The notes: a model not told the origin generated them from the letters alone. Positions 4,448 through 63,519 are shown, counted from the first letter of the stretch. The stretch: 64,000 bases of DNA from an uncultured Acidobacteriota bacterium (GCA_963770895.1 CAVYRF010000002.1:3360001-3424000); one strand, 5' to 3'. Translations and numbers: made by a program.

Positions 4448-5989
4448 TCAGCGCTTCAAGGTCTGGTCGTAGAACTGCGCCAGGTCGGCCTTCAGCTGGG
4501 TGAGCGCCTCGGGATGAAGGTAAATCATGTGGCCGGACTGGTAGTAGCCCCAATGGAGATTCTTCGCAAGGCTCGGATCGAGTCCCATGTGACCGACGGT
4601 GTACTCCGTCTCGAAAAACGGCGTGGCGAAATCGAAGTAGCCGTTGGCGAAGAAGACATGGAGCCCCGGGTTGCGGCTCAGCGCCTGGCGCAGGTCCTCG
4701 GCCACATCCGGCATTGCGGCGCGTCCCATATCAGTGCGGTGACGGTCGTCCCAGTTGCCGCCAATCTCCTGAAAGTTGTTCTCGCGGTAGAGATCCTCGG
4801 TCTCGAACTTGAGATCGCCTCGCAGATAGGCGTTGAAGGCGCCCACGAAGGCCGGGGCGATGGACTGGTCGGCGGCATCGTACTCCGTGGCCTCGCCCGC
4901 GGCGTCGTGGTCGATGCCCTTGAACCGTGCGTCGAGCTGGCCGATCGTGCGCCGCTCGCTGCGCAGCAGCTCCTTCTCGAAGCGAGCAGGACTGATGCGC
5001 AGGTTGGCGTTGCGGAGAAACGCGATCGGCAGGCCGGTGTAGCGGTGGAGCTTCTCCGCGGTCGCGGCAGCCACGCTCTCGCTGATGTGATCCCCGGCGG
5101 CGAGAGCCTGGAGGTACTCGCCGAGCGCAAAGCCGCGGACTTCGGCCAGGAAGGCCGGCAGATCGGCGGGCTGCGGGTCGAGCCGCTTGTGGTACCAGGC
5201 GGCCGCGGCCATGGTGGGTAGATAGAGCGCATACGGAGTGTCGCTCGAGAACGGTGGGCCGTTGAAGTCGTCCCACGCGTTGAGGTACGACGAGACCATC
5301 ACCACGCCGTTGAACGCGACGCCGGAATCGAGCAGACGGTTGAGCAGGCCAGCGGCGCGGGTCGTTCCGTAGGATTCGCCGAGCAGGAACTTCGGCGAAT
5401 TCCAGCGGCCGTTCTGGCTCACCCAGCGCTGGATGAACTGGGCAAACGCCGCGATGTCCGCGTCCGTGCCGTAGAAGTCCTTGCCCTCCCCTTTGCCGAT
5501 GATGCGCGAGAAGCCGGTGCCCATGGCGTCGATGAACACCAGATCCGTCTTGTCGAGCAGGGTCGAGGCATTCTCGGCCACGGTGTAGGGCGGCGGCGGC
5601 GAAGGCGCGCCGTCGGTCGTCACCACGCGCACCGGACTGAACGAGCCCATGTGAAGCCAGATCGATGAGGAACCCGGTCCGCCATTGAAGCAGAAGGTCA
5701 CGGGCCGCGCTTTCGCGTCCCGGCCGTCTGCCGTGTAGGCGACCGAGAACATCCGTCCGATCGGCTCATCCTTGTCGTTCTTGAGCTCGATGGTGCCCGC
5801 CGTCGCCGTGTAGTTGATCGCGGTCCCGCCGACGGAAATGTGGTGATGGGTCTGCGAAGGCTTCGGGGCCTCCGACTTTTTCTCATCCGCGGCCTTGTCG
5901 TCCTTCTTTTCGGGCTCCGCGGCCGCCGCCACGGCAGCCACGATCAGCCACGCTCCACACGCCAGCGCCCAACGCTTGTCGATCCTCAC
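4448..5989 (-). CDS. Peptidase S10 serine carboxypeptidase, secreted (copy 1)
   Basis: FNGGPGSSS, DLVFID..GTGFS, GESYG, GYFD and SGHMIY; GTG start after GAGGAG RBS; signal peptide. Confidence 0.92.
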   Translation of the reverse strand: MRIDKRWALACGAWLIVAAVAAAAEPEKKDDKAADEKKSEAPKPSQTHHHISVGGTAINYTATAGTIELKNDKDEPIGRMFSVAYTADGRDAKARPVTFCFNGGPGSSSIWLHMGSFSPVRVVTTDGAPSPPPPYTVAENASTLLDKTDLVFIDAMGTGFSRIIGKGEGKDFYGTDADIAAFAQFIQRWVSQNGRWNSPKFLLGESYGTTRAAGLLNRLLDSGVAFNGVVMVSSYLNAWDDFNGPPFSSDTPYALYLPTMAAAAWYHKRLDPQPADLPAFLAEVRGFALGEYLQALAAGDHISESVAAATAEKLHRYTGLPIAFLRNANLRISPARFEKELLRSERRTIGQLDARFKGIDHDAAGEATEYDAADQSIAPAFVGAFNAYLRGDLKFETEDLYRENNFQEIGGNWDDRHRTDMGRAAMPDVAEDLRQALSRNPGLHVFFANGYFDFATPFFETEYTVGHMGLDPSLAKNLHWGYYQSGHMIYLHPEALTQLKADLAQFYDQTLKR

Positions 5990-6224
5990 GCTCGTGCCTC
6001 CTCGATCTGTGTCCGTGCGACCGCAGAGGCCGCAGCGGTTCCGTCCGCGCCAGGTCCCACCGATCCGGGTTCCTGCCGAGTCAGGAACGATATCGCGTGC
6101 TGCCTGCTTCGGGGGTCGGGACGCAGCAGTAGCCTGCACGATATACGAGCGGCCACGCTGACGGGTTGCAGCCGCGAGCCGCCCGCTGTCCGCCTGTGTC
6201 GATCGGGCACCGCGGCGGGTGGCC
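4448..6224. repeat. Copy 1 of a ~1.78-kb direct repeat (S10 gene plus ~235 bp upstream); copy 2 at 33853-35629
   Basis: Direct comparison at offset 29405: identical by eye from the stop codon to ~5665, scattered substitutions beyond that. Confidence 0.95.
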
Positions 6225-6629
6225 TGTCTGTGGGTAGAATGGCGCATCTCATTGCAGGTGGTCGCGGCGCCGCGGCGGCGTGGTGGCTTGGCCGGTGCGG
6301 AGCGGGCGCCGCGGGCCGGGAGGAGAGCGATGCGGTCAGGATGGGGTCTGTGCACGTGCCGGGGCGCGGGGCTCGTGGGGATGCTGCTGCTGGGGGCGGT
6401 GGTACGGGTGGCGGCTGCCAGCGCGGCTGGGGTGGGCGCGGTGTCGGCGGCGGCGGGGAGTGCGAGCGGGATGGCCGTGGGAGCGGGGCCGGCGGCACCG
6501 CGGTCTTGGCGGCGGCTTCACGGCTTTTGTACAGTCGGTGCCTCTTCGCAATGTATCGCATCGCGATGATAGTGACTGCGTTGTCGCACTGGCGCAATGG
6601 CTCTCACTGGCCATCGCCAGGCGAAAAAC

Positions 6630-6700
6630 GGTCGCCTTCAGCCTGGAACGGGTGGTCGCCTTCAAACGGAATCAGTGGTCGCCTTCGACCGGAATACGCA
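6630..6700 (-). mobile_element. Orphan IS21-family (IS408/IS1162-like) terminus
   Basis: Minus strand reads TGCGTATTCCGGTCGAAGGCGACC...; three GGTCGCCTTC repeats at 6630, 6654 and 6677 (23-24 bp period), typical of IstA-binding repeats; no istA/istB in the window. Confidence 0.7.
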
Positions 6701-7337: not shown

Positions 7338-9149
7338 TCAGTGGAAGAAGCCGTCCAGAGTCGTGACGTGCTTCTTGATTTCGCCCCAATACTCGGCCGT
7401 GGTGGGGCCCATGGGGTCGCGCCGCATGACTTCGTCGATCTCCCGGAATTTACGCACCAGGTCTTTTGCCTGCACCTTGAGCTCCATCTGATCGGCCTCC
7501 AGCGAGGCATGCGGCCGCAGGCGTTGCGCCAAGCCCTTAAAACCTGTGCCGGTCGCCTTCTGATATGCGCTTTTCAGCTCATCGGTCAAGGACTTGAAGT
7601 CCCCCAGCAGGCGCAGTCCGGCATTGCTCTTTTGCGGATCGTGTTCTGCGGCGTCGTACGCATCGTCGGCCAGGGGAGCCAGGGCAAAGATGACCTCCTT
7701 CATCCTGGTAAGGTCGCTCACTCTGAGGTCCGAGGCGGACGCCGGCGGCGCCGGCTCGGCCGCGCGCGCCACCTTGGCGGTTTCGGCGTCGGCGGGCGCC
7801 GGCGCGGCGGGCTCCGGCGGCGGCGATTTGACGGCATCCGGCGGCAGGGTTCGTGTTTTCTTTGCCTGCGCAAGCTTGGGTTTGGGGGCCGTCGGCGGGC
7901 TCTCGACGTCGGTCGGCGCTGCCGCGTCGGGCGATGAAGTGGGCGGCTGCGCGGCTGCCAACAAGGCCTGGGCAGGCTGGGAGGCCGGCGCCCGCTGGAG
8001 AGGCATCGCCGGCTGCAAGGGGGCTGGCGCCGTGCCAGGTGGCGCGACCAGGGCGACCGCCGCGGGAGGAGGAGCGCTGGCGGCGGGTTGACCGTGCAGC
8101 GCCAAGGCCAGCACGAGGGCCGTACCGGCTGCCACCAACACCGCAGCCGCCGCCAGAATCCAGACGCCGCGCCCCTGCAGCAGCGCGCCCAGCCCGGACC
8201 TGGATACGGGGTTCTGGCCGGAAGCCAGCGCCGCACCCGGATGGGACTGCGCATCCAGGACCGTTGGGTGCGGGGTGAGCATGGCCTGCGGTGCCGCTGG
8301 CGTCGTTGGCTGCGAAGGGGGCGGCTGCGTCGCCGGAGCGGCCTCTTGCAAGGCGCGCAGAAAAGCGCCGGCGCTCGGAAAGCGATCGTCGGGGGCCTTG
8401 CTGAGAGCCACTTCGATCGCTCGCAACACGCCAGGTGGCAGGTCCGGGTTGAGCGTCGCCAGATCCGGCGGCGGCGACTCGATGTGCTGCTTCTTGATCG
8501 CATACTCGGTATCGGCGTCGAACGGTGGCTGGCCGGCAAGCATTTCAAATAAGACCACGGCGGCGCTGTAGATATCGCTGCGGTGATCGACGGTGCGCGG
8601 ATAGAGAATCTGCTCGGGCGACATGTAAATGGGAGTACCGATCGAGGATTGCGAGGCCGTCAAGCGCTTGTCGCCGATAAGCAGCGCGATGCCGAAGTCC
8701 ATGAGCTTGACCCGGCCTTGGGCCGTGATCAGAGCATTGGAAGGCTTTACGTCGCGATGAATCACGCCTTCCGAATGAGCATAGTCGAGTGCCGCGAGGA
8801 TCTGGCCGAAGATGCCCATCGCCTCGCCGAGCGCCATGCCGTGTCCGGCGGCCGCCTTGAGCCGCTGATCGAGCCCTTCGCCGGGGACCAGCTCCATGAC
8901 GATGAAGTACTCGCCGGCGTCCTCGACCAGGTCGTAGACCGCAATGATGTTGGGGTGGTGAAGGTGGGCTTGCGTCTTCGCCTCGGCGAAGAAGCGCTCC
9001 TTGAATTCGGGCTGCCGGGTCAGCTCGGGCGCCAGGGCTTTGATGGCCACCGCACGCCCCAGGTGATCGTGCACGCCGCGATAGACGACCCCCATGCCGC
9101 CGCGTCCGATGAGTCCCTCAATCCGGTAGTGTCCGACGTTGGATCTCAC
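7338..9149 (-). CDS. Membrane-anchored Hanks-type Ser/Thr protein kinase (kinase - TM - Pro/Ala linker - helical C-terminal domain)
   Basis: IGRGGMGVVY, VAIK, HRDVKPSN, DFGIA, GTPIYMSPEQ and DIYS; TM VWILAAAAVLVAAGTALVLALAL; GTG start after AAGGAG. Confidence 0.93.
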   Translation of the reverse strand: MRSNVGHYRIEGLIGRGGMGVVYRGVHDHLGRAVAIKALAPELTRQPEFKERFFAEAKTQAHLHHPNIIAVYDLVEDAGEYFIVMELVPGEGLDQRLKAAAGHGMALGEAMGIFGQILAALDYAHSEGVIHRDVKPSNALITAQGRVKLMDFGIALLIGDKRLTASQSSIGTPIYMSPEQILYPRTVDHRSDIYSAAVVLFEMLAGQPPFDADTEYAIKKQHIESPPPDLATLNPDLPPGVLRAIEVALSKAPDDRFPSAGAFLRALQEAAPATQPPPSQPTTPAAPQAMLTPHPTVLDAQSHPGAALASGQNPVSRSGLGALLQGRGVWILAAAAVLVAAGTALVLALALHGQPAASAPPPAAVALVAPPGTAPAPLQPAMPLQRAPASQPAQALLAAAQPPTSSPDAAAPTDVESPPTAPKPKLAQAKKTRTLPPDAVKSPPPEPAAPAPADAETAKVARAAEPAPPASASDLRVSDLTRMKEVIFALAPLADDAYDAAEHDPQKSNAGLRLLGDFKSLTDELKSAYQKATGTGFKGLAQRLRPHASLEADQMELKVQAKDLVRKFREIDEVMRRDPMGPTTAEYWGEIKKHVTTLDGFFH

Positions 9150-9291
9150 GATCCCTCTCCTTTGCAATCAAGCGTGGTGGGCCTGGGCTCACGCCGGAAG
9201 CTCGATCCGCTCGCCCAGCGGCCAGCAATGTCATCTTCTGTAAGTGGGCGACAGCATACCATTCAACAGAATAACTTCAATCACTCATCGA

Positions 9292-9320
9292 GTCATACAC
9301 AAGTCACAATATTTAGGCAA
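9292..9320 (-). promoter_or_regulatory. Putative sigma70 promoter for the kinase (TTGCCT-N17-TATGAC)
   Basis: AT-rich intergenic region; 17-bp spacer; TG immediately before the -10. Confidence 0.35.
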
Positions 9321-9330
9321 CTGCATGTGT

Positions 9331-9359
9331 TTGCACCTGCGCGCGCTGTTCTCTATGAT
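9331..9359 (+). promoter_or_regulatory. Putative sigma70 promoter for the PP2C-FHA operon (TTGCAC-N17-TATGAT)
   Basis: Near-consensus hexamers with 17-bp spacing in an AT-rich region. Confidence 0.55.
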
Positions 9360-9496
9360 CGGTTTCACGATCGGTAGGTACACCTGCGAAGGAGGCGCCG
9401 GAATGCATGCGGATGCCTCCGCAGAGCTGGCGGCGGATGGCGGTTGCGGCGCTCCCGAAGCGTCCAAACCGCGGGACCCGAGGGAGGCACCGCAGC

Positions 9497-10339
9497 ATGG
9501 AGGCAAAGCTGGAGACCGTCGTGACGCCTTGCTTCGAGGTGGAGCTCGGCCTGGTGTCGGAGTGTGGTCCCGCGCGCTCGGAAAATGAGGACGCCGCCGC
9601 CGCGTGGCATGAAGCGCAGGCGATCGCGGCGCTGGTGGTGGCAGACGGGATGGGTGGTCACCGCGGCGGCCGCGAGGCGGCCGAGATCGTGGTGCGCTGC
9701 AGCTTGGACAGCGTTCGTGAGCTGGCGGCGGCCACGGCGCCCAGTTGGAGCGACATGCTGCGCAGTGCCATGGCCAGCGCGCATGAACAGGTGCTGGCGG
9801 CAGCGCGCGGCACGCGGGACGACGGCAGCGGACGAGCGCTGGCGGGCATGGGAGCCACTGCCGTTCTCGCCGTTGTCGACCTGGCGGCGACTCCCATCCT
9901 GCACGTCGCGCACGTCGGCGACAGCCGCGCCTACCTGTTTCGCGGCACGTCGCTGATGCGCTTGACCCGCGACCACTCGCTGGTCGGCAGGATGGTGGCG
10001 GACGGCCTGCTGACCGAAGCCGCGGCATTCAGACATCCCGACAGCAACGTCATCGAAAGAGCCATCGGGCAATCGGAACCGCTGACTGCGGAGATAGAGA
10101 CGGCGCTGCTGCTCATGGCAGGCGACCTGGTGCTGCTCACCACCGACGGCCTGCATGGAGCATTGCCGGACGACGCCATCCGCCAGCTGCTGCTCGACGC
10201 CGGCTCGGCACAGGCGGCGTGCGAGGAGCTGGCGGCGGCCGCGCTTGCCGCCGACGGCCAGGACAACGTCACGGTCGGCTGCATGAAGCTCGTCGAGCTC
10301 GACGGATTCAGCCGGCGCCCAACCCGCGTCGAGGCGTGA
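9497..10339 (+). CDS. PP2C-family Ser/Thr protein phosphatase
   Basis: RSENED, VADGMGGH, GMGAT, HVGDSRAY, TRDHS, TDGL and DNVT; GGAGG RBS before ATG 9497. Confidence 0.93.
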   Translation: MEAKLETVVTPCFEVELGLVSECGPARSENEDAAAAWHEAQAIAALVVADGMGGHRGGREAAEIVVRCSLDSVRELAAATAPSWSDMLRSAMASAHEQVLAAARGTRDDGSGRALAGMGATAVLAVVDLAATPILHVAHVGDSRAYLFRGTSLMRLTRDHSLVGRMVADGLLTEAAAFRHPDSNVIERAIGQSEPLTAEIETALLLMAGDLVLLTTDGLHGALPDDAIRQLLLDAGSAQAACEELAAAALAADGQDNVTVGCMKLVELDGFSRRPTRVEA

Positions 10340-10364
10340 GCGCGCGAATCGCCAGAGGAGCTCG

Positions 10365-11198
10365 ATGATTGAATGTTCCAGCTGTCACACCTTGAATCCC
10401 GAAGGCGAAGCGAAGTGCCTGCTCTGCCGCGCCGAGCTGGCGCTTCCGCAGCGCGCCGCCGCCGCGGTGCGCTGCGCCGCCGGCCACCCGATCGATCCGA
10501 GCTGGCGCAGCTGCCCGTATTGCGAGCGCCAGGCAGGTGGGCAAAGCCAGTCAAGCTCGCCGCGGACCGATCTGGGCGGCACCGTTCCGCCCCGTCCGAC
10601 GCTCGTCGAGGAGCAACCCACAGCCCAGTTGCGGCACCAGCGAGCGAGCGCTGCTGCCGCGGGCGCAGTCAGGGCGACGCGGCTGGAGTCTCCCGCAAAC
10701 CAGCTTCTGCCGCACCCGACCGTGCTGTCGAGCGCGGTTCCGGCGCCGCCGGGTGCAGGGGCGGCACCCGCCGTTCCCGGTACCCGTGTGCTTGACGCGA
10801 CAGCGGGTGCCGCCGCGCCGGCACTCGACACGCGCCCCCTGGTGGCGGTCCTGGCGGCACCGCTGCTACGCGCCGGTGGCGCGGTCTTCGCGGTGCGGGC
10901 GGGCAAGAATGTGCTCGGTGCAAGCGACGCCAGCGACATCTGCCTGGCAGAGGACCGGCGCGTCTCCGCCGAGCACGCCATCTTGTTATATCGCGGTGGT
11001 ACCTTCCAACTGGCGGATCGCATGTCGTCGAATGGCACATGGCTGAACGGCCGGGAGGTGCCTGCCAATGGCGCCGTCGAGGTGCGCGACCGCGATCGCA
11101 TTCGTTGCGGCGGTGTCGAGCTTGTGCTGCTGGTGATCGACGGAGCCGCCGGCAGCGCCGCGGCGGCAAGCGAACCAGGCCGATCGATCTCAGGCTGA
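10365..11198 (+). CDS. Double zinc-ribbon + FHA domain protein
   Basis: CSSC, CLLC, CAAGH and CPYC; C-terminal FHA (VSAEHA, DRMSSNGTWLNG) with GA in place of the canonical GR. Confidence 0.85.
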   Translation: MIECSSCHTLNPEGEAKCLLCRAELALPQRAAAAVRCAAGHPIDPSWRSCPYCERQAGGQSQSSSPRTDLGGTVPPRPTLVEEQPTAQLRHQRASAAAAGAVRATRLESPANQLLPHPTVLSSAVPAPPGAGAAPAVPGTRVLDATAGAAAPALDTRPLVAVLAAPLLRAGGAVFAVRAGKNVLGASDASDICLAEDRRVSAEHAILLYRGGTFQLADRMSSNGTWLNGREVPANGAVEVRDRDRIRCGGVELVLLVIDGAAGSAAAASEPGRSISG

Positions 11199-11217
11199 AA
11201 AGCGGAGGGATCCTAAA

Positions 11218-12780
11218 GTGTCAACGGTTGTGACTATCAAGTATTTTACCGGCTCGCTCGCCGGCCGCAGCCAGCCGCTCGTTCTCAACGAAGGCCAGCG
11301 AGTGCGCATGGGCCGGGCGCAGGACTCCGACATCAGGTTCATCGATGCAATCGACGATTCGGTAAGCAGCCTGCACGCGGAGCTGAGCCTGCAACAGGGC
11401 CGCGTCTATCTCGAAGACAAGCGCAGCACCAACGGCACTTTTGTCAATGGCGAACGCTGCGTCCCATTTCAGGCGATCGCCCTTGCCGACGGCAGCCGCA
11501 TCCGCCTGGGCAAGGAGGGCCCGGAAATGCAGCTCCTGGTGGAGGCGCCTGCCGCCGCCGCGGCGGGTGTTGCTGCGCGCAGCGTGGACCCGGCGGCGCC
11601 GGCGGCCTCAGCGGGAGCCGCGCCGGGAGGTGCGACGCTCGCCGGGACCGCCGCCACCGACGCCGGCTCGGGCTTGGTACCGGCAAAGGTGTCCGTTGGC
11701 CGCGCCACGCTGCTGCGCGAAATCGATCGCGCTCGCCAGGACGAGCGCAACGTCGTCTCCGGGCAGCTTGCCAACTCTCGACGCAACACCGGCGTCTGGG
11801 TTGCGCTCGGGCTCGTTTTCGTGCTGGTGCTGGCCGCTCTCGGCATCGGCGGTGTGGTGCTCTGGAATCGCCGCCAGCTCGAAGCCCAGCGCGCGACCAC
11901 CAGCGCCGAGGTCGCCAAGGCCGAGACGGACGCGGCGCGGGCGGCAAGCTTGGCAAAGGAAAACGTCTGGGCGAGCGTCGAGCGCCATGCTGGGCCGGCG
12001 GTGGTTCACATTCGCTGCGGGTTCCGCGTCTTCCGGCCGAGAATCGCGCACAAGCTGACCAGCGCGACGGCGCAACTTGTCGAAACCAGGGGCGAGTTTT
12101 ATCAAGAAGAAGCGGTCGAAGGTTCCGGTGTCCTGGTGAAGCCCGGGCTCGTGCTGACGGCCAGGCATCTGATCGAACCCTGGCAGTTTGAGTTCAAGCC
12201 GTGGAGCGATCTCGAGCGCCGCGGCTGGAAGGCCGAGGACCAGATGCTCGAAGTCCAGTTTCCAGGTCAGCAGCCGATCAAGGCGAGCCTGGTCGCGGCC
12301 TCGGATAAATTCGACCTCGCACTGCTGCAGATTCAGCCAACCAACGCTCCGTATGTGGCCATAGCGAAGTCCAACGAGGGCGTGAAGGTGACGGACCGTA
12401 TCGCCGTGATCGGGTACCCCGCCGACGTCGGCCAGACGACGAGGCCGGTGGCGAAGCCGACCGGAGCCGGCTCGGAACCGGCGGAGGTGACCGACATTAC
12501 GCCGACCTTTGTCGTGGGCACGATCACCCAAGGAATCCACAGCGCACTGGACTACCAGAAGATTACCTTCGACGCCTCGATAACCAACGGCAACAGCGGC
12601 GGTGCGGTGCTCAACGAACGCGGCGAGCTGATCGGAATCGTCACGGCGCAGTACATCATGGATAAGAAAAAGGTGATCATGGGAGTTACCGTGTGGATGC
12701 AGGACCCCGTCCCTGGAGCCAACGTGGCAGTGAGCCCGCAAGCGATTCAAGAGTTCCTGCGCACGTACGGCATGACCTAG
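11218..12780 (+). CDS. FHA domain - TM - trypsin-like serine protease
   Basis: FHA: MGR, VSSLHA, DKRSTNGTFVNG. TM: VWVALGLVFVLVLAALGIGGVVLW. Protease triad: LTARH, FDLALL, TNGNSGG. Confidence 0.9.
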   Translation: MSTVVTIKYFTGSLAGRSQPLVLNEGQRVRMGRAQDSDIRFIDAIDDSVSSLHAELSLQQGRVYLEDKRSTNGTFVNGERCVPFQAIALADGSRIRLGKEGPEMQLLVEAPAAAAAGVAARSVDPAAPAASAGAAPGGATLAGTAATDAGSGLVPAKVSVGRATLLREIDRARQDERNVVSGQLANSRRNTGVWVALGLVFVLVLAALGIGGVVLWNRRQLEAQRATTSAEVAKAETDAARAASLAKENVWASVERHAGPAVVHIRCGFRVFRPRIAHKLTSATAQLVETRGEFYQEEAVEGSGVLVKPGLVLTARHLIEPWQFEFKPWSDLERRGWKAEDQMLEVQFPGQQPIKASLVAASDKFDLALLQIQPTNAPYVAIAKSNEGVKVTDRIAVIGYPADVGQTTRPVAKPTGAGSEPAEVTDITPTFVVGTITQGIHSALDYQKITFDASITNGNSGGAVLNERGELIGIVTAQYIMDKKKVIMGVTVWMQDPVPGANVAVSPQAIQEFLRTYGMT

Positions 12781-12809
12781 CCTGCGTTCCATAGCTAAGC
12801 TCAGCCGCA

Positions 12810-13754
12810 ATGGTTTACGACCTCTTCATCAGCTACGCGACCAAGGATGCCGCGAGCGCCAAGGCGATCTGCCAAGCGCTGGAGGCCAGGGGCCTGGTCT
12901 GCTGGATCTCGCCGCGCGACATCGTTCCCGGCACGGACTATTCCACCGCGCTGGCGCAAGCCATTCCTTCCTGTTGCCTGTTCTTGCTGCTGCTTTCCCG
13001 TCACTCCAACGAGTCACCCTGGGTGCATCGCGAATTGGAGCGTGCGATCAGCCGTGGAAAGCCGGTGCTGACGGTACGCCTGGAGAAGGTCGCCCCCAAC
13101 GAACACCTGGAGCTGTTCATCTCGAGCTCGCAGTGGTTCGATGCGTTTGGGCTCAGGCCATCGTCCTACCTCCCGGACCTGGGAGACAAGATTCGCCTGC
13201 TGCTCGGCCCTTCACGCGATGGCGGTGTGGCCGCTGCGCCCGCCGTCGAAGGCAAGTTGCCTCGCCCCGCGCCACCGGCCGGAGAAGTTCAGCAAGGCGG
13301 CGCAGCCGTCGATCCAAAGCCGCAGCTTCAAGTGAGCGACGCTGGCGCCGTGAAAGTTAGAAGCGGCACGGATGCCCACTCTCCAACCGCACCGATGGCG
13401 CCTTTACGTAGGCGCAGTGTGCTGCTGGCAGCAGTGGGGGTGCTGCTGGTGCTTGCGGTAGGTGGCGTGGCCTTCCTTGGCATGGTCGTCAGACCTGCAC
13501 CCGGTGAGCAACCCTCGCCTGCCCAAAGCGGGGAGCCGCAGGGGCCATCGCCCGAGCAGACGATCACGAAGTTCCAGGAGGCTGAGAAGAGCTTCGCGGA
13601 CACGATCGCGAATGGAACCTGCTCGCCGACCTCTGACGAGTATCAAGCCCTTGAGACATCTGCCGGCAAGGCGCCCGTGTCGGAGGAGGGTTGGATGAGG
13701 AGAGATATGAATAATCTCCTCACGGAATGTGAAAAAGAAACGGGTGGGCCATGA
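12810..13754 (+). CDS. TIR domain - linker - TM protein
   Basis: YDLFISYA, CWISPRDIVPG and SPWVHRELERA (catalytic Glu position); TM VLLAAVGVLLVLAVGGVAFLGMVV; short tail with two Cys. Confidence 0.9.
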   Translation: MVYDLFISYATKDAASAKAICQALEARGLVCWISPRDIVPGTDYSTALAQAIPSCCLFLLLLSRHSNESPWVHRELERAISRGKPVLTVRLEKVAPNEHLELFISSSQWFDAFGLRPSSYLPDLGDKIRLLLGPSRDGGVAAAPAVEGKLPRPAPPAGEVQQGGAAVDPKPQLQVSDAGAVKVRSGTDAHSPTAPMAPLRRRSVLLAAVGVLLVLAVGGVAFLGMVVRPAPGEQPSPAQSGEPQGPSPEQTITKFQEAEKSFADTIANGTCSPTSDEYQALETSAGKAPVSEEGWMRRDMNNLLTECEKETGGP

Positions 13755-13817
13755 CCACGGCAGACAGATGGTGGGTGACTCTTAAAGTACGTCGCTTGCA
13801 GGGTAAGGGGCGCTGAC

Positions 13818-14927
13818 ATGTTGATCGGTGACGGGGTGCGAGGAGGTGGGGTGAAGCTGCGCCAAGGGTGCCGGCGTGCCTGCCGGATGACGTTCGCCGT
13901 ATGTGCGGTGCTGCAATGGGGGATGACGGCAGGCGCTCATGCGGCCACGACAACCGCCGCGAGCTCCGGCACCGTGGGCAAGGCCGGCGATGCACCGTAT
14001 GTGCTGCTCCGGTTTGCCGCTGAGGCGGGAAGTCAGGTCGGCAGCGATGAGCGCCGCGAGGCGCTGACGCAGGCCCTGATCGCGAGCGCTAGCGCCGCGC
14101 ATGTCCTGATCTGTCGTCACGGCGTCGCCGCGGCCGGGGGGCCCTCCTTCGATCGGATGTGCTCCGAGCCCAACCGGGCGATTCCGGAGCTGTGGTGGGA
14201 TGCGGCCATCGCGATCCATCGGGCCGGCGAGACGACGGTCACCTGTTCGCTGCAGCTGGCGCTGGGTGACAGGGCTCCGAAGGCGGCGCCGGCGTTCTTT
14301 CTGACGCCTCCGATCACGCTTCCCGCAGATCTCGGTGCTGCGAGCGTCGAAGGCGCTGCCCTCCGCGAGGTCAGCGCGGAGATCGCCGCCAATCCTTACC
14401 TGGTTGCGTGGTTCAGGCAGGTGGCGAAGCTGCCTGGACCGACGGGCGCAAAGGCGGCGGAGACCCCGCCAGCGGCTCCGCCAGCTGCAGCCGAACGTCC
14501 CGCGCGCGAGCCGGCTGTGGCCGCAACCAAGGCGGCTGGCGCAGGCAGCGGCAAGGCGCCGCCGCCTCCCCCCCAGGCGGAAACGTCCTTCACCGTGCGG
14601 CAAGCGGTGATTGGCGAGGGCTTCGGCGGCGGCGCGGACGGGTACCTGCGAATCGGCAGCGAGGGAGTGGCTTTCAGCCGCAAGGAGCAGGGGCCAGCCG
14701 AGTGGACGATCCGGTGGAAAGACCTGGCTTCGGCCTCCCAGAACGATGGTATCTGGGACGCTCCCTTCGTGATCGCCCTGGTGGAGAAGGGCGGCAGGGT
14801 GCGCTATCTCACCCGCACTGACGGGCGCGGCCACTATCTCGCTGGCGACGCGGTGCTGGCCGCAATAACCCACCGGCGCGAATCGCCCCCCAAGACCGAC
14901 TCGAGCGAGGATGGGGTCCAAAAGTAG
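13818..14927 (+). CDS. Hypothetical exported two-domain protein with Ala/Pro linker
   Basis: Signal-like segment ending AHA; protein-like composition; co-oriented with the operon; start uncertain. Confidence 0.6.
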   Translation: MLIGDGVRGGGVKLRQGCRRACRMTFAVCAVLQWGMTAGAHAATTTAASSGTVGKAGDAPYVLLRFAAEAGSQVGSDERREALTQALIASASAAHVLICRHGVAAAGGPSFDRMCSEPNRAIPELWWDAAIAIHRAGETTVTCSLQLALGDRAPKAAPAFFLTPPITLPADLGAASVEGAALREVSAEIAANPYLVAWFRQVAKLPGPTGAKAAETPPAAPPAAAERPAREPAVAATKAAGAGSGKAPPPPPQAETSFTVRQAVIGEGFGGGADGYLRIGSEGVAFSRKEQGPAEWTIRWKDLASASQNDGIWDAPFVIALVEKGGRVRYLTRTDGRGHYLAGDAVLAAITHRRESPPKTDSSEDGVQK

Positions 14928-15383
14928 CGCCCGCGCCACCGCCTTCCCGCCCCGGAGCTGCTTGACCGCGCAACGGCGCGACGGCGACGCTGCTGTCGGA
15001 TCCTATAGTAAATGGCGCCACCCGCACTCCGTGGCGAACGTCGCGGGGTGCAGGGTGGCTGCGGTGCAGCTGGTGCAGCGCTTAAAGCGACAGGGAAGCG
15101 GCCAGCACGTGCCTGGGGTAGGGGGATACCCACTGCGTTGCCGGCGCGGGGGTATCGCCGGAAGATCAGGCCCTGATAGCAGGACACTCCAGCATTGCCG
15201 CGGCACATTTACAGGTAGACCTCGGCGCGCGTGACGCTCGCCGGAGGCACCCGAGAGGAGAACGGAATGAAGATCCGGTTGGGACTGCTGTTCACGAGCA
15301 TCCTGCTGGTCGCGGCCACGGCTGCTGCCGCATCTCCGGCCGCCGCGTCGCCCCCCGCGCCACCCGCCCTGCAGGCTGGCGGC

Positions 15384-16809
15384 GGGGATGTCCCACTTTC
15401 CGTTGAAAGTCGACGGCGAAGTTGGCGGTAGTTTCACGCAGTGAGCGTCTCCTGGTCAAGCTTTTCTGGGTAAGAAGGGGCAGACCGAGCGAGGGCGATG
15501 CTGAGAGCCGGCAGGTCGCGGTAGCCCTTGATGCGACGGAAGCGCTTCTCGGCTTCGAGGATCCCGGTGACCGCCCAGCGCAAGACCATCGTCCCTCCTC
15601 GCCAGCGCTTGACACGGCGAGCCAGGTGCTTCAGAGCACTGTTGAGATTCTCGATTGGATTGGTCGAGCGCAAACTGCGAGTGAGCGTCGCCGACATGCG
15701 CAGGCCGATGATTGTTAAGGTTTCATCGAGACCTTCCCGCAACGACGACGCTGCGCCTGGATGCGCCTCTTCCAGTTGCTCTGCCAAGCCCACGAGGCGC
15801 TTCCGGGCTTGCTCGACAGAGCCAGCGGCCCAAGCCTTCCGGATCACCGTTCGCACCCACGCGTGCTTACTATCAGGTAAATGATCGATCACGTTGCGCA
15901 TCTTGTGGATCTGGCAGCGTTGGATCAATGCCCAGCCCGCAAAAGTCTTTCTAATCGCGGCACGCACGCCCTTGCCGCCGTCCACAACGAACAGGCGCAT
16001 CCGCTCTACCAGCAGGCCGCGCTCGATCAAGTTGCGCAGCAACGCCCGCCCTGCCTGCTCGCTCTCGCTGCTGCCTTCCACCACCCCCAGCACTCGCTTC
16101 GACCCATCCGCCTCGATGCCCATCGCCAACAGCAGCACATGGTCGCCAAGCACCGTGCCGTCGATCATGAGCACCGGGAAGTCCCTGCCTTCGAGGGACT
16201 CGGACAGCCGCTGGGTGATCTGCTGGCGGGTCCGCGCGACGAAGCGCCGGGACACGCTCGAACGGCTGACCGAGCACGAGTTCCGGCTCTCGGGCAGGGC
16301 CTCCAGGCTCCGGGCATACTTGCGCGTCGATACGCCCACGATCATCTGCTCGAGAGCTCGCTCGTCGAGAGGATCTTCCTGTCGCATCGCGACCCAACTC
16401 GGCAGCGCCAACTCCTCGCCCCCGACGGTGCGCACCCGCGGCCGGCCCAGCTGCACCTTGCGGCCTCCGAGGACCACGCGACCCTGCTCATGTCCGTAGC
16501 GATACGCCGTGCGCTGCGCTCCCTGCCGGCTGCCGGCAGGACCCACCAGCGCCTCGCGGTCCTCCTCCAGCATCGCCTCGAACACCGCGAGCCCCGTCGC
16601 CATCACCAGCTCCCGTAGCGCCTCTCCGGCTCGCACCAGCACGCCCCCCACGCCTACTCGCCGACAGGCTCCCTCGTGCCCAGCAGTTGCCTCTCTCCCT
16701 CTCGCCGTGGCACTCTTCTTCATGACGGTGACCCTCCTTTAGTTGGCACCCCCATGCTCTATGGGGGCGAGGATCGCCGTCAACTTTCAACGGATTCTGG
16801 GACAAGGCC
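15384..16809 (-). mobile_element. Complete IS256-family insertion sequence (1426 bp)
   Basis: 36-bp imperfect inverted repeats (GGGGATGTCCCACTTTCCGTTGAAAGTCGACGGCGA / GGCCTTGTCCCAGAATCCGTTGAAAGTTGACGGCGA); 9-bp TSD GCTGGCGGC at 15375-15383 and 16810-16818. Confidence 0.95.
15434..16723 (-). CDS. IS256-family DDE transposase
   Basis: GVSTRK, LMIDG, VVDGGKG, QRCQIHK and STNPIENLN motifs. Confidence 0.95.
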   Translation of the reverse strand: MKKSATARGREATAGHEGACRRVGVGGVLVRAGEALRELVMATGLAVFEAMLEEDREALVGPAGSRQGAQRTAYRYGHEQGRVVLGGRKVQLGRPRVRTVGGEELALPSWVAMRQEDPLDERALEQMIVGVSTRKYARSLEALPESRNSCSVSRSSVSRRFVARTRQQITQRLSESLEGRDFPVLMIDGTVLGDHVLLLAMGIEADGSKRVLGVVEGSSESEQAGRALLRNLIERGLLVERMRLFVVDGGKGVRAAIRKTFAGWALIQRCQIHKMRNVIDHLPDSKHAWVRTVIRKAWAAGSVEQARKRLVGLAEQLEEAHPGAASSLREGLDETLTIIGLRMSATLTRSLRSTNPIENLNSALKHLARRVKRWRGGTMVLRWAVTGILEAEKRFRRIKGYRDLPALSIALARSAPSYPEKLDQETLTA

Positions 16810-22103: not shown

Positions 22104-24890
22104 TCACCCCCCAGCTCGCACTGAGCCGGTGGCGGGCCGTGCCGCTGTTGCCAGCACCTTGAGGTGAGCGAGAAGCGGCGCGGTCGGGACCAGCGCCCCT
22201 TCGGCCTGCTTCAGGATGGTCGCCGCGAGCGCTGCGCCCGCGGCGCGTTGGGCAGCGGTGCCGCGCGCCAGGAGCTCGGCGCGCGGCACCTTGCCCACGG
22301 CGCAGAGGATGTGCCCGGCACCATAGTACTGCTGCTCGGTCTGCTCGGCGCGCAGCAAGCCTTGGAGCGCCTCCGTGGTGTGTCCGAGTGCCGCCTCGGC
22401 GAGAGCGGCTTGGCGCTCTACCTCGATGCCCAGCCACGACTTTGTCACCGGCACCAGCGGCCGGATGCTGGCCATCTCCGCCAGCGCCCGCGCCGCATCG
22501 CCCTTGCGCAGGTACCACATCGCTTGCACGAGGCGCGCCTTGAGCGTATCCGGTGCGTTCTCACGGCGGGTGGCGAGGCGCATCTTGAGCGCCATTGCGA
22601 CCTGCGGGCGGGCGGCGTCGAGCTCGCCGGCGCGCACCAGCGACAGGGCGTAGTTGACGCGGATGACCGCCAGGCTGCCTTCCGAGGAGGATCTGGCGAG
22701 CGCGGCAAGCGACCGTTCCCAGGCGCGCGTGGCGGCGCGTTCATCGCCGACCGCGTCTTCGGCCATCGCCAGGTTGTGAAGCATGATGCCGACCGGTGCC
22801 GAGGACGGGCCCATCCTGCGGGTCGCGATCGAAATCGCCTGTTGATAGAGCGGGATGGCCTCGCGCCCGCGTCCCGCGAAGTCCAGGCCGCGCGCCAGCT
22901 CCGCCATCGCCCAGGCGGTCGCGAAGGAGTCGGCGCCCTTGATGCGACGGTTGGCGGAGAGCGCGGCGCGGAATTCCGCCACGGCCTCGGGGAAGCGCTG
23001 CGCGTCGTCGAGGGCCCGGCCGATGTTCTCGTACGTCTCGATGTAATCATTGTCATTCTTGCCATGCAGCTGGCCGTACATTCCCTGGCCGCGGCGCAGC
23101 GTCGCGATCGCATCGTCGTGCCAGCCTTCCTTCGAAAGCGTCATGCCGAGCACATCGAGAGCATCCGCCAGGTCGTTGCTCGGGCCGCCGCGCGCCAGGA
23201 TCGCCACGTTGCGTCGCCGCAGCGCCTCCGCTTCGCGGGTCCGATCGGTCAGATGAAGGATGGCGGCGAGCTCTTCGCGCGCCGTGACCGCCAGCATCCC
23301 CTCCGCTCCGGCATGCCGTTCGACGAGTGTCAGCGCCTCGCGTGCGTCGGCCTCGCCGCTGGCCGGATCGAACGTCACATCGCGCAGGTCCGACAGGTTT
23401 ATCAAGAGGCGGGCCAGGGCGAGCGGCCGGTCCAGGCTGCGCTCGATCGCGACGGCGCGGAGCAGGTGATCGCGCGCCTTGACGGTATTGCCCATGTTCT
23501 CCTGGACCTGGCCGAGTGCGCCGTGAATGTCGGAGAGCGCCGCGGCCTGTCCCTTGAGCTCGGTCTCGAGACGCGCTTCGGCCTGGGCGATCAGCGTCGC
23601 GGTCGGCACCGGGGCGACCTCGCCAGCCTCGTGCGAGGCGCGGAAGATCGACACCAGGAAGTCGCTGACTTGGCGCGATGCGGCTTCGGCCCGCGTGGCG
23701 CGGTTGCGGTCGCTCTCCGCCTTGGACGCGGCGGCGCGGGCGCTCCGTTCGGCGGTGCGTGCCAGGTGCGACTCGAACATCGCCTGGGCGGCGGCCGCGG
23801 AGACGGTCGCGGCGAGGAGCAGGGCGGCCGCCGCCGCCGTCCGGCGGCGGGCGAGGAGCTTGCGCAGCACGTAGCCGCGCCGCCCCTGCCATTCGGCAAT
23901 GGGAAGGCGGTCGCGGAAGCGTCGGATGTCGGCGGTCAGCGAGTCGACCGTGGCATAGCGCTCGGCCGGGTCGCGACGCGTGGCACGGGCGATGATCGCC
24001 GCGAGCTCGCGCCGGCGCAGCGCAGACAGGTGTTGCCGGCCGGCCGCCGCCGCGAGGAGCTCGGCCAGGAGCACGCCGAGGCTGTAGATGTCGCTCGCCG
24101 TGGAGAGCGCTCCGCGCTCGATCTGCTCGGGACTGGCGTAGCGCGGCGTAAAGGCGTGCGGCGGCGGGGCGGCGGGCAAGGCGGGCTCGGCGCCCGCCTC
24201 GACGCGGCCGAGCAGGTGGGCGATGCCGAAGTCGAGCAGCACCGGGCGGCCGCCGGCGTCGATCAGCAGATTCGACGGCTTGAGGTCACAGTGGATGACC
24301 AGCTGGCGATGGGCGAACGCCACCGCGTCGCAGGCGGTGAGAAAGAGATCGAGGATCGCCTCGACACCGAGCTGCGCGTGGCGGCAGTGCACGTCGATGT
24401 GATTTCCCTCGATGTACTCCATGACCAGGTAGGGCCGCTGGTTCGGTGTCGCGCCGCCGTCGAGCAGGCGGGCGATGTTGGGGTGGGTGAGGTGGGCGAG
24501 GAGCTGCCGCTCGCGGGTGAAGAGCGCCAACGCCTGCGGGCTCGGCACGCCCTGCAAGATCTTGAGAGCCGCGCGCTGCTCGAAGTGGCCGTCGCTACGT
24601 TCGGCCAGGAAGACGCGCGCCATGCCGCCACGGCCGATCTCGGCCGCGATGCGCCAAACCCCCAGGGTGTCGCCCGGCGCGATCGCGTGCGTCGCCGCTT
24701 CGTCGAGCACCGAGGCGATGGGTTGCCAGGCGAGCGTCGTACCAGTGGTCACGGCGTGGAGTGCCAGCACCTCGGCGATCACCCCTGCATCGTCGGTGAG
24801 CCCCGCCAGGGCCGCGGCGCGCTGGTCGGGCGGCAGCTCGGCGACCACGGCGAAGAGGCGCTTGATGGTTGCGTACTGCTCGGGGCTCAT
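22104..24890 (-). CDS. ECF-associated Ser/Thr kinase with TM and TPR repeats
   Basis: IGRGGMARVF, HCDLKPSN, DFGIA and FTPRYASPEQ; TPR-like helices; ATGA overlap with the sigma factor stop. Confidence 0.9.
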   Translation of the reverse strand: MSPEQYATIKRLFAVVAELPPDQRAAALAGLTDDAGVIAEVLALHAVTTGTTLAWQPIASVLDEAATHAIAPGDTLGVWRIAAEIGRGGMARVFLAERSDGHFEQRAALKILQGVPSPQALALFTRERQLLAHLTHPNIARLLDGGATPNQRPYLVMEYIEGNHIDVHCRHAQLGVEAILDLFLTACDAVAFAHRQLVIHCDLKPSNLLIDAGGRPVLLDFGIAHLLGRVEAGAEPALPAAPPPHAFTPRYASPEQIERGALSTASDIYSLGVLLAELLAAAAGRQHLSALRRRELAAIIARATRRDPAERYATVDSLTADIRRFRDRLPIAEWQGRRGYVLRKLLARRRTAAAAALLLAATVSAAAAQAMFESHLARTAERSARAAASKAESDRNRATRAEAASRQVSDFLVSIFRASHEAGEVAPVPTATLIAQAEARLETELKGQAAALSDIHGALGQVQENMGNTVKARDHLLRAVAIERSLDRPLALARLLINLSDLRDVTFDPASGEADAREALTLVERHAGAEGMLAVTAREELAAILHLTDRTREAEALRRRNVAILARGGPSNDLADALDVLGMTLSKEGWHDDAIATLRRGQGMYGQLHGKNDNDYIETYENIGRALDDAQRFPEAVAEFRAALSANRRIKGADSFATAWAMAELARGLDFAGRGREAIPLYQQAISIATRRMGPSSAPVGIMLHNLAMAEDAVGDERAATRAWERSLAALARSSSEGSLAVIRVNYALSLVRAGELDAARPQVAMALKMRLATRRENAPDTLKARLVQAMWYLRKGDAARALAEMASIRPLVPVTKSWLGIEVERQAALAEAALGHTTEALQGLLRAEQTEQQYYGAGHILCAVGKVPRAELLARGTAAQRAAGAALAATILKQAEGALVPTAPLLAHLKVLATAARPATGSVRAGG

Positions 24891-25576
24891 GTCGATCGCG
24901 GCCTGCGCGGTTGCGACGGGTGGAGAGCATGCCGTTGGAAACCTGGCGGCTGGTGCTGCGGCGGCGCATGCCGCCGCGGCGGGTCCCTGCGCGCCGGGGC
25001 GCCGAGCGCCTTGTTGAGCCAGGCGCGGGCGAAGCGGAGCTCGCGGTCGACCGTCGGCACCGAGATGTCGAGGAGGCTCGCGATCTCCTCGCGGTCCAGG
25101 CCGCCGAAGCACTTGAGATGCATGATCTGGCCGCAGCGCGCATCGAGCCGCGCCAGGCGTTCGAGCGCGTCATCGATGACCAGCAAGTCGACCGCCGCCG
25201 CGCCGCTGCCGCCAGCCGCCTCCGCCACGTCCGCCAGGGTGACGCGCAGGGCGCCACCGCCGCGCTTTCCGGCGGCACGCGCCCGCGCGTGATCGACCAG
25301 GATCGAGCGGATGGCGAGCGACAGCGTGGCAAAGAAGTGCGCTCGGTTCTGGAACTCGGCGGGCGACGGCAGGAGGCCCAACAGAGCCTCGTGCAGCACC
25401 TCGGTCGGCGAGAGCGTGACCGGGTGGCTGCCGCGGCTCACTCGCCGGGCGGCCACCGCCTTGAGCTGGTCGTAGACCTGGTCGATGAGCTCGCCGAACG
25501 CAGTGCCGCTTCCCTGGCGCCAGGAGCGGAGGAGGGCGGTGAGCGGCGGCGGCTCGGGGGGCGGGGTTGGAGGCAT
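24887..25576 (-). CDS. ECF-type RNA polymerase sigma factor (kinase-associated type)
   Basis: LTALLRSW, TLSPTEVLHEA, NRAHFF, ILVDHARAR.AGKRGG, FGGL..EEIA and TVDRELRFARAWL. Confidence 0.92.
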   Translation of the reverse strand: MPPTPPPEPPPLTALLRSWRQGSGTAFGELIDQVYDQLKAVAARRVSRGSHPVTLSPTEVLHEALLGLLPSPAEFQNRAHFFATLSLAIRSILVDHARARAAGKRGGGALRVTLADVAEAAGGSGAAAVDLLVIDDALERLARLDARCGQIMHLKCFGGLDREEIASLLDISVPTVDRELRFARAWLNKALGAPARRDPPRRHAPPQHQPPGFQRHALHPSQPRRPRST

Positions 25577-28970: not shown

Positions 28971-28994
28971 GATGGTTCTCTGTCAACTCGCCAG

Positions 28995-29957
28995 TCAGGC
29001 TGGCGCGGAGGCGAACGGGCGCAAGGCATCGGCATCGAGCGCCTCGTTGCGGTACATGAAGAAGCCCGCGCGGTGAATGCCTACCGCGCGGCCCGATTCC
29101 AGCGAGAAGATCGGCGATCCCGAGCTGCCCCCCGTGGTCGAACAATCATGAAACAGATCAGGGGCTTGGGTACCGTCTAGCGACTCTCCCAAGGCGGCAC
29201 GTTTGACGCCAAACCTTCCCTGGTAGACGGCCGACAAGAAGAGCGGATTGCGACCTGCATCCGCGGCAGGGTAACCGACCGCGACGACGCGGTGCCCCGC
29301 TTCGACGGCTGCCGGCGCGATGTCGACGACGGGCCGGCCGAGCTTACGTACGGCGAGCAGGACGATGTCGAGATGCGGATGGATCGCGGCCACATCCTCG
29401 ATCTCGACGGTATGCTCAGGTGCGTCAGTCGATTTTTCCTCGCGTTGAAAGAGTACGCGGGCCTGCCCGGGTTCGAGCTTTTCAGCGCCGAAGCTCAGGT
29501 CGTCCAAGACGTGCCGGTTGGTGGCGAGCACTCCGTCCTGCACCAGGAAACCGCTACCGACCTGGTTGCCGTCCGCGCTCTCGATCCGGCCGATGGAGTA
29601 AAGCAGCGGCTGGATTTTCTTGCGGAAGGCGCTCCACAAGTCCTTGAGCTCGGGCGGCTGCAGATTGTGTTCCGGCGTGTCCGGCAGGTCGTCCAGCATG
29701 CCTCCATGGGAGAGCGGTGCCGGACGCAGGACGCGAATGACGATTTCCAGGGCGGCCAACTGGGTGGCGGAAGGCGCTACGCCGTTGCGCAGCTGGTCCC
29801 ATGCGGCCTGCGCGGCCACTTCGCTGGCGGGAATCGTGACCGGTCCGATGATGGCGCGCGTTTTCTTGAGCGCCTGGGAAATCTGGTGCGGTCCCAGCGC
29901 CCGATCGGCGCGGGCGAGAAGAAGCTGCTCCCTGGTGGTGAGCGGCAGGGCGTTCAC
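28995..29957 (-). CDS. Cytoplasmic trypsin-like serine protease
   Basis: VGSGFLV, ATNRHV (His), HLDIVLL (Asp) and HDCSTTGGSSGSP (Ser); GTG start overlaps the upstream stop (GTGA); no signal peptide. Confidence 0.9.
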   Translation of the reverse strand: MNALPLTTREQLLLARADRALGPHQISQALKKTRAIIGPVTIPASEVAAQAAWDQLRNGVAPSATQLAALEIVIRVLRPAPLSHGGMLDDLPDTPEHNLQPPELKDLWSAFRKKIQPLLYSIGRIESADGNQVGSGFLVQDGVLATNRHVLDDLSFGAEKLEPGQARVLFQREEKSTDAPEHTVEIEDVAAIHPHLDIVLLAVRKLGRPVVDIAPAAVEAGHRVVAVGYPAADAGRNPLFLSAVYQGRFGVKRAALGESLDGTQAPDLFHDCSTTGGSSGSPIFSLESGRAVGIHRAGFFMYRNEALDADALRPFASAPA

Positions 29958-35394: not shown

Positions 35395-35629
35395 GCTCGT
35401 GCCTCCTCGATCTGTGTCCGTGCGACCGGAGAGGCCGCAGCGGTCCTGCCCGCGCCAAGTCCCACCGATCCGGGTTCCTGCCGAGTCAGGAACGATATCT
35501 CGTGCTGCCTGCTTCGGGGGTCGGGACACAGCTGCAGCCTGCACGATATACGACCGGCCACGCTGACGGGTTGCAGCCGCGAGCCGCCCGCTGTCCGCCT
35601 GCGCCGATTGGGCACCGCGGCGGGTGGCC
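33853..35629. repeat. Copy 2 of the ~1.78-kb direct repeat
   Basis: Matches 4448-6224. Confidence 0.95.

Positions 35630-38044: not shown

Positions 38045-63519
<25,475 letters not shown>

Follow-up and report, generated by a model that had tools for sequence, protein, structure and literature searches.

Six adjacent genes at positions 7338..14927 of a 64,000-nucleotide stretch of DNA from an uncultured Acidobacteriota bacterium (GCA_963770895.1, CAVYRF010000002.1:3360001-3424000; the whole stretch is called the window below) form a conserved, co-inherited cluster of uncultured soil Acidobacteria that is independent of the type VI secretion system (T6SS). The operon encodes a membrane receptor kinase (KinB), a PP2C phosphatase, a zinc-ribbon protein with an atypical FHA domain (ZnR-FHA), a protease built from an FHA domain, a transmembrane (TM) helix and a trypsin domain (FHA-TM-trypsin), a TIR receptor and an exported protein. 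We put the chances at about even that this is a conserved trans-envelope signalling operon, in which a threonine-phosphorylation switch would act on an outward-facing membrane protease and an optional second receptor would carry a kinase output, exchanged here for a TIR domain. Its most likely purpose is a response to envelope damage or surface contact rather than dedicated phage defence. The TIR protein is not part of the operon core; in a minority of loci it takes the place of a second receptor kinase. An earlier sequence-only reading of the window had proposed a writer-eraser-reader unit, which we recovered as co-inherited and T6SS-independent (23/23 loci; p 0.76); its view that all six genes, TIR included, make up the system was not upheld.

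A co-inherited kinase, phosphatase and FHA-protease operon

Of 107 close homologues of the protease, 102 were full length, and those with a name belong to Thermoanaerobaculia/Acidobacteriota. True-orthologue loci numbered 17 from genomes and 14 from metagenomes; L064-L067 (metagenome), which repeat proteins of L009 or L006, were dropped, leaving 28 loci including the window. The PP2C, ZnR-FHA and FHA-TM-trypsin genes were adjacent and co-directional in this order, with PP2C as the first gene, in every one of the 23 non-redundant loci with enough upstream sequence; the other five of the 28 are truncated by contig ends and hence lie outside this count. A long RD receptor kinase adjoined the core wherever the contig extends far enough: KinB is downstream and co-directional at the operon end in most loci, and divergent and upstream in the window and L013. 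The complete six-gene set was found on a single contig in the window only. Co-occurrence of the six genes, the check named in the sequence-only reading, was borne out for the three core genes and was not supported for TIR (two TIR-type against 11 kinase-type genomes). Flanks varied between loci and held mostly housekeeping genes. Distant FHA-TM-trypsin genes (~21% identity) occur farther afield: many Bacteroidota loci pair them with kinase, PP2C and FHA genes, a Planctomycetia locus pairs them with kinase genes, and none of these loci had a TIR match. Because the kinase/PP2C/FHA-trypsin set recurs in Bacteroidota, the core appears to be a cross-phylum module.

KinB (7338..9167, minus strand; 609 amino acids) is an RD-type Hanks receptor kinase by its Pfam Pkinase domain (residues 14-231), hydropathy and motif alignment, in which Lys43, HRD and DFG are followed by a juxtamembrane TxL motif, a TM helix (337-355), a Pro/Ala linker and a four-helix-bundle ectodomain. 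This ectodomain is conserved rather than hypervariable; AlphaFold2 modelled it as four helices (predicted local distance difference test 87), and a fold search gave zero PDB matches at E ≤ 0.001. The phosphatase (9497..10339, plus strand; Pfam PP2C_2 and NCBIfam) is a soluble Ser/Thr enzyme of 280 amino acids. ZnR-FHA (10365..11198, plus strand; Pfam and motif count) joins a double zinc ribbon (DZR) through an R-x-T-x-L(E) repeat linker to its atypical FHA domain. The linker holds 2-6 T-x-L motifs per protein with the consensus R-x-T-R-L-E, and 24 linkers contained 96 TxL, against 11.2 ± 3.1 expected and a maximum of 23 in 2000 shuffles, the sequences being related and not independent. In FHA domains the Arg after Gly binds the phosphate of phosphothreonine (pThr), and this Arg was absent from ZnR-FHA in 24/24 orthologues. 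The repeated RxTxL motifs and the missing pThr-binding Arg suggest that ZnR-FHA is likely a multivalent phospho-substrate or scaffold.

The FHA domain of the protease (11218..12780, plus strand; S1, Trypsin_2, without PDZ; Pfam and homologue alignment) is canonical, with GR in 100/102 homologues, SxxH in 98 and NGT in 100 (G32-R33, S50, H53 and N72 in the window), and is assigned to the cytoplasm. It is followed by a juxtamembrane G-R-A-T-[LM]-L-R-E segment, whose Thr164 (codon 11707-11709) was present in 105/107 and whose GxxTxxxE pattern in 100/102. As the sequence-only reading had stated, the triad (H317/D366/S460) lies C-terminal to the TM helix (197-215), and thus outward; it is intact in 100/107 homologues. 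Many KinB orthologues also bear R/H-P-T-x-L beside the membrane. The simplest reading is a motif common to three proteins, which KinB would write, the protease FHA would read, the adaptor would multiply and PP2C would erase. The proposal that phosphorylation clusters both the protease and the TIR protein divides accordingly in two: clustering of the protease is plausible, given the RxTxL repeats, Thr164 and canonical FHA domain, but clustering of TIR is unsupported, as this protein has neither an FHA domain nor a conserved Thr in its cytoplasmic linker.

A longer operon form (L006 7579-9618; L009 7666-9650; L075 7910-9900; L017 13295-13999) adds an exported glycine-zipper protein; three of the longer-form loci add an SPFH/Band7-FHA protein, and CHAT proteins come next in some. 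L002 encodes a receptor kinase with a TonB C-terminal (TonB_C) ectodomain (13756-15366), and further extra operon kinases have Ig-like or TPR-like ectodomains. A triple-FHA ABC transporter resembling Rv1747 is divergent from the operon in L005 (4304-7309, minus strand).

The fourth operon slot, its ectodomain and the exported protein

The gene after the protease (slot 4) usually encodes KinA, a kinase-TM protein of 374-404 amino acids (complete in 12 of the 28 loci, and present also in L152 and L156). In 13/13 KinA rows examined the kinase is of the non-RD type (HLD) and its activation segment is short; the long operon kinases are RD. In the window and L062, slot 4 is filled by the TIR-TM receptor (12810..13754, plus strand in the window; TIR_2, E 5.8e-23), with a TIR domain at residues 1-135, a TM helix at 204-222 and a helical ectodomain. 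G369 has a near-identical TIR-type ectodomain in this slot, its N-terminus being lost at the contig end. The slot is missing in 8 loci, and among 13 family genomes with a strong ectodomain match, 11 were of the kinase type and 2 of the TIR type.

Homology links the ectodomain of the TIR protein to that of KinA (HHalign 98.5%, E 2.7e-15; P0122 matches the KinA of L006 at 39% over 98 amino acids). The window ectodomain (13542..13751, plus strand) is one helix shorter than most and includes Cys271 and Cys307; the Cys pair, common to 7/7 full-length TIR proteins and to the KinA of L006 and L009, fits an extracytoplasmic disulfide. An ectodomain profile run against 1.84 billion representatives returned 37 matches. 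The 11 retrieved, together with 3 TIR proteins identified before, belong to the KinA-type kinases or the TIR proteins or are fragments; the remaining 23, uninspected, are multi-stretch and repeat-like, and clear full-domain matches were of the KinA/TIR type only. A FastTree phylogeny of 37 proteases (midpoint root, without a clade test) put P0008 into a single clade (0.974) with the proteases of the window and L062; this clade nests next to the lineage of L006 and L009, and the 51-kb contig of P0008 seemingly also carries a TIR gene, P0126. With a homologous ectodomain in the kinase slot and the TIR loci nested in one clade, the exchange looks like a single kinase-to-TIR replacement on one receptor ectodomain. 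Such a natural swap, in an otherwise unchanged operon, offers a test of a bacterial TIR as the output of an outside-in receptor, and of the functional interchangeability of TIR and non-RD kinase outputs that Toll/Pelle and plant receptor-kinase parallels suggest.

The exported two-domain protein (13851..14927, plus strand) comes directly after slot 4 in 17/17 loci (in L062 its N-domain only is visible), occurs without slot 4 in 3 loci and is missing together with it in 5. This one-way dependence of slot 4 on the exported gene, a matter of gene order, suggests that the protein is a ligand or co-receptor of the slot-4 receptor. It had zero Pfam matches. A signal peptide, weak by hydropathy in the window and clear by eye in orthologues, precedes an optional alpha/beta N-domain (residues 50-195), a Pro/Ala linker and a C-terminal PH-fold domain (nucleotides 14571-14897). 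AlphaFold2 likewise gave an alpha/beta fold for the N-domain and disorder for the linker, and its model of the C-terminal domain resembles PH/PTB/FERM-F3 (Z 13.2, root-mean-square deviation 2.5 Å over 100 residues); the PH domain alone is common to all complete copies. A PH profile matched 2/401 genomes class-wide, both in the window's own family. For the PH domain Atlas gave no more than leads (0.88-0.90), and for the N-domain no more than unnamed clusters and a low-ranked DUF6175 lead. When the exported protein was modelled in complex with the TIR ectodomain, the score was 0.00 against a mark of 0.32, which is evidence neither way.

Proposed mechanism and competing explanations

In the mechanism we favour, the four-helix ectodomain of KinB would sense an envelope cue, and the kinase would phosphorylate the R-x-T-x-L motif in the linker of ZnR-FHA, where it recurs 2-6 times, in the kinase's own juxtamembrane part and at Thr164 of the protease. 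The canonical FHA domain of the protease would bind these pThr sites, and the multivalent adaptor would cluster the protease and switch periplasmic proteolysis, as in the phosphorylation-controlled clustering of the FHA membrane protein Rv1747 described in the available part of PMC11326607. PP2C would reset the system by erasing phosphorylation, and the exported PH-fold protein would serve the slot-4 receptor as a ligand or co-receptor. Because the TIR protein has neither an FHA domain nor a conserved linker Thr, activation through its ectodomain seems probable: in most relatives the non-RD kinase would be switched on by clustering of the ectodomain instead of phosphorylation, and in the window lineage so would the TIR NADase, giving a nucleotide signal or a drop in NAD+. 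FHA-TM-trypsin proteases are widespread and unstudied in Acidobacteriota, Bacteroidota and Planctomycetota, and the operon offers them a concrete mechanism, with an RxTxL phospho-motif, a multivalent scaffold and a near-invariant, mutable Thr.

Several observations weigh against this envelope-signalling reading. The operon is patchily distributed, the protease being carried by 14/92 family genomes and 3/10 of the window's own genus, as would be expected of an immune system too. KinB of the window shares 65% identity with its counterpart in G369, from another genus, and 50-54% with those of G468 and G472, from its own; this closeness to another genus suggests transfer or differential loss, which an immune system would also show. 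A second, different TIR family, fused to a TM-trypsin paralogue instead of the FHA domain, lies upstream of the operon in L002 (5642-8224) and P0105, and a gene adjoining the operon in L013 (11729-13978) has a 54%-identical region; TIR was thus independently recruited a second time, again as expected of an immune system. The swap itself leans on relatives within the family, as the window's own ectodomain is short and scores weakly: against a KinA-only profile it reached E 0.0005 among open reading frames (ORFs) of the loci, and among 66,023 genome segments it was the top match with E 0.09.

In animals, a protease cascade activates Spaetzle, which acts on the Toll TIR receptor and through it on the non-RD kinase Pelle. 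As an analogy only, both Toll signalling and the operon have an extracellular trypsin-family protease, an exported protein, a single-pass TIR receptor and a non-RD kinase; in the operon, by contrast, homology to leucine-rich repeats or cystine knots is absent, TIR and the non-RD kinase take each other's place and are not partners, and ligand processing is conjectural. A Toll-like immune or conflict system would be triggered at the kinase by an invader or envelope breach; the clustered protease would then cleave the flexible linker of the exported PH-fold protein and set free a domain that would cluster the slot-4 receptor, leading through the non-RD kinase or TIR NADase to dormancy or death. 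We regard this as possible but on balance doubtful. No defence island was seen, PADLOC matches at 1e-20 amounting to 3/99 flank proteins with none adjacent (the 99 were picked from ~150, favouring unannotated proteins, and without a random-gene control), and Pfam, PADLOC and curated models found no Thoeris, cyclic oligonucleotide-based antiphage signalling system (CBASS) or Pycsar effector or cyclase adjacent in the operon. TIR is rare, slot 4 may be missing and the Bacteroidota core has no TIR; the KinB ectodomain is not hypervariable, and the association of non-RD kinases with immunity stems from eukaryotes and may not carry over. The conflict role put forward in the sequence-only reading gained no support and stays as a rival. 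A full cascade is in our estimate unlikely: the kinase would cluster the protease via a pThr scaffold, the protease would mature the PH-fold protein, and this ligand would in turn cluster a receptor with either a non-RD kinase or a TIR NADase as its interchangeable output, giving immunity or programmed dormancy on envelope attack.

A TIR that serves for dimerisation or as a scaffold without enzyme activity, or that is a replacement in decay, would leave the kinase-PP2C-FHA-protease set as the working system; we consider this improbable. The loci without slot 4 and the window ectodomain one helix short would agree with this, as would the closest PDB matches, which include TLR6 and the non-enzymatic adaptor TIRAP; the TIRs of TLR4 and MyD88 are without NADase activity (PMC7282519, available part). 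Yet the TIR core is strongly conserved at ~45% overall identity, and the catalytic Glu noted at the outset, Glu75 (WVHRE; codon 13032-13034), was kept in 7/7 full-length relatives. It aligns with the Glu of PDB 3h16 and 6wt6 in helix alpha-C; in TIRAP a Gln stands there. Every prokaryotic TIR examined in the review PMC7282519 needs this Glu for NADase activity, and self-association is probably needed too. Glu75 is necessary for NADase activity and no proof of it; the TIR is predicted to cleave NAD+, which would make the protein a bacterial Toll-like receptor. Were the TIR inactive and a defence phenotype absent, the operon would still be an undescribed variant of envelope signalling.

Cell-contact, motility or developmental signalling, as in myxobacterial kinase-FHA networks, would tune surface proteins by regulated proteolysis. 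The variable Ig-like, TPR-like and TonB_C ectodomains on extra kinases and the glycine-zipper and SPFH-FHA genes in 3-4 loci speak for it, but the operon is absent from 78/92 family genomes and its flanks show no recurring motility or developmental genes; we consider it very unlikely.

The T6SS has a threonine-phosphorylation pathway of PpkA, PppA and Fha1-TagH. It shares with the operon a membrane Hanks kinase with a periplasmic domain, a PP2C, an FHA reader and exported accessories; the operon differs in having no T6SS genes nearby or in its genome, and in its outputs, which are a protease in the membrane and a receptor of the TIR or kinase type. The window genome (G000; 8.16 Mb, 3 contigs, 95% complete) lacks TssC/VipB and Hcp, in agreement with the absence of T6SS structural genes reported earlier. 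TssC was found in 5/14 carriers against 24/78 non-carriers, without enrichment (Fisher p 0.76). None of 107 flanking proteins scanned was a tss or type VII secretion system (T7SS) product, a genome-wide T7SS search not having been made. We therefore rejected a T6SS link, and homologues are not always embedded in T6SS clusters. An orphan T6SS phosphorylation module acting in trans, for which the resemblance to PpkA/PppA/Fha1 and TssC in 6/20 carrier genomes could be cited, is largely refuted by these data and by the TagH model (TIGR03354), on which the window FHA proteins score 31-35 bits against a cut-off of 120, and has next to no likelihood left.

Described systems and the setting of the operon

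The operon is a variant of the kinase/PP2C/FHA switch that is new in its protease output and in its exchange of a receptor kinase for TIR. The actinobacterial pknA-pknB-pstP-fhaA-fhaB cluster likewise has two receptor kinases, one PP2C, and soluble and membrane FHA proteins. Unlike it, the window set has no PASTA domains (NF033483, 302 against 450 bits, kinase domain only) and a four-helix kinase ectodomain; rodA/pbpA are absent among the scanned flanks, the PP2C is soluble, the membrane FHA protein is fused to a trypsin protease, and the distribution is patchy, not core. The Mycobacterium tuberculosis FHA-ABC transporter Rv1747 combines FHA domains with a phosphorylatable disordered linker and kinase/phosphatase-controlled clustering (PMC11326607, available part), and is our model for the protease step; in the window, the reader would be one protein and the multivalent substrate another, with a protease as the cargo, and clustering would be by analogy. 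The Bacteroidota clusters share an FHA-TM-trypsin with intact GNSGG, several kinase-TM genes, PP2C and extra FHA proteins, but differ in identity (~21%), gene order, a TM helix on the PP2C and the absence of a TIR match.

With Thoeris, CBASS TIR-SAVED and Pycsar effectors the window protein shares a TIR with a catalytic Glu and an expected activation by self-association. It differs in placing the TIR on a single-pass receptor whose C-terminus is a TM helix and a KinA-type ectodomain, not SAVED, STING or CNBD, and the operon has no ThsA or cyclase. PADLOC ThsB matches were weak (E 1e-5 to 1e-3), ThcB4 scored 30 against 220 bits, and the operon lacks a Thoeris effector. Like HtrA/DegS, the protease has a trypsin-fold triad beyond an N-terminal TM anchor, but it lacks PDZ, ends ~45 amino acids past the trypsin domain and scores far under the cut-off of HtrA models. 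The kinase-PP2C-vWA triads (TerY-P; GAP1-N2-linked, PMC7159879, available part) contain a vWA domain, which the operon does not; a vWA gene lay on the opposite-strand flank in 2 loci. The PD-T4-6 kinase models of PADLOC gave E 2e-96, the same Hanks-kinase domain being matched by 33 PADLOC families that contain a kinase. The available part of PMC7159879 covers such triads only, and that of PMC12204202 mentions neither kinase nor trypsin. Full-text searches found no description of the operon, in keeping with the sequence-only reading, to which no described system of this composition was known, although supplements (e.g. of PMC7159879) or subscription papers could list it.

An ORF check recovered all six genes at 7338..14927, and Pfam agreed with the domains first assigned to them. 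The likelier starts are 9497 for PP2C (the ORF reaches 9407) and 13851 for the exported gene, with GGAGG upstream. Hydropathy gave one strong helix each, and hence three single-pass proteins as proposed, with mean Kyte-Doolittle values of 2.6 (kinase, 337-355), 2.79 (protease, 197-215) and 2.79 (TIR, 204-222). G000 has 12 FHA matches and 9 TIR_2 matches, a clear downstream TM helix occurring in the operon's TIR only. Operon GC content is 66.8% against 70.7% for the genome (10th percentile), and a promoter/terminator scan stayed at chance level (1 vs 0.8; 2 vs 4.0).

A 1,777-bp direct duplication (4448-6224 and 33853-35629; 98.9% identical), carrying a serine carboxypeptidase S10 gene, brackets with its copies 29 kb apart an accessory-looking region that contains the operon. 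A Mutator-family (IS256-like) transposase gene lies ~500 bp downstream of the operon (15434-16723, minus strand) and has three more 1.43-kb copies in the genome at 99.8-99.9% identity. On the same strand, an ECF sigma factor gene followed by a kinase-TPR gene (22104-25576) forms a pair common in these bacteria, and co-directional genes for a metallophosphoesterase, a small trypsin-like protease and a caspase-like (C14) protein (26619-31252) resemble protease-coupled conflict modules. Beyond them is a nonribosomal peptide synthetase/polyketide synthase cluster (38039-63519, plus strand), in which a ketosynthase ORF (49941-52244) overlaps a 4161-amino-acid ORF (from 51034) in another frame, suggesting a frameshift or assembly error. 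A repeat element of ~80 bp (6615-6700) recurs in related form at 8 or more other places on contig C2.

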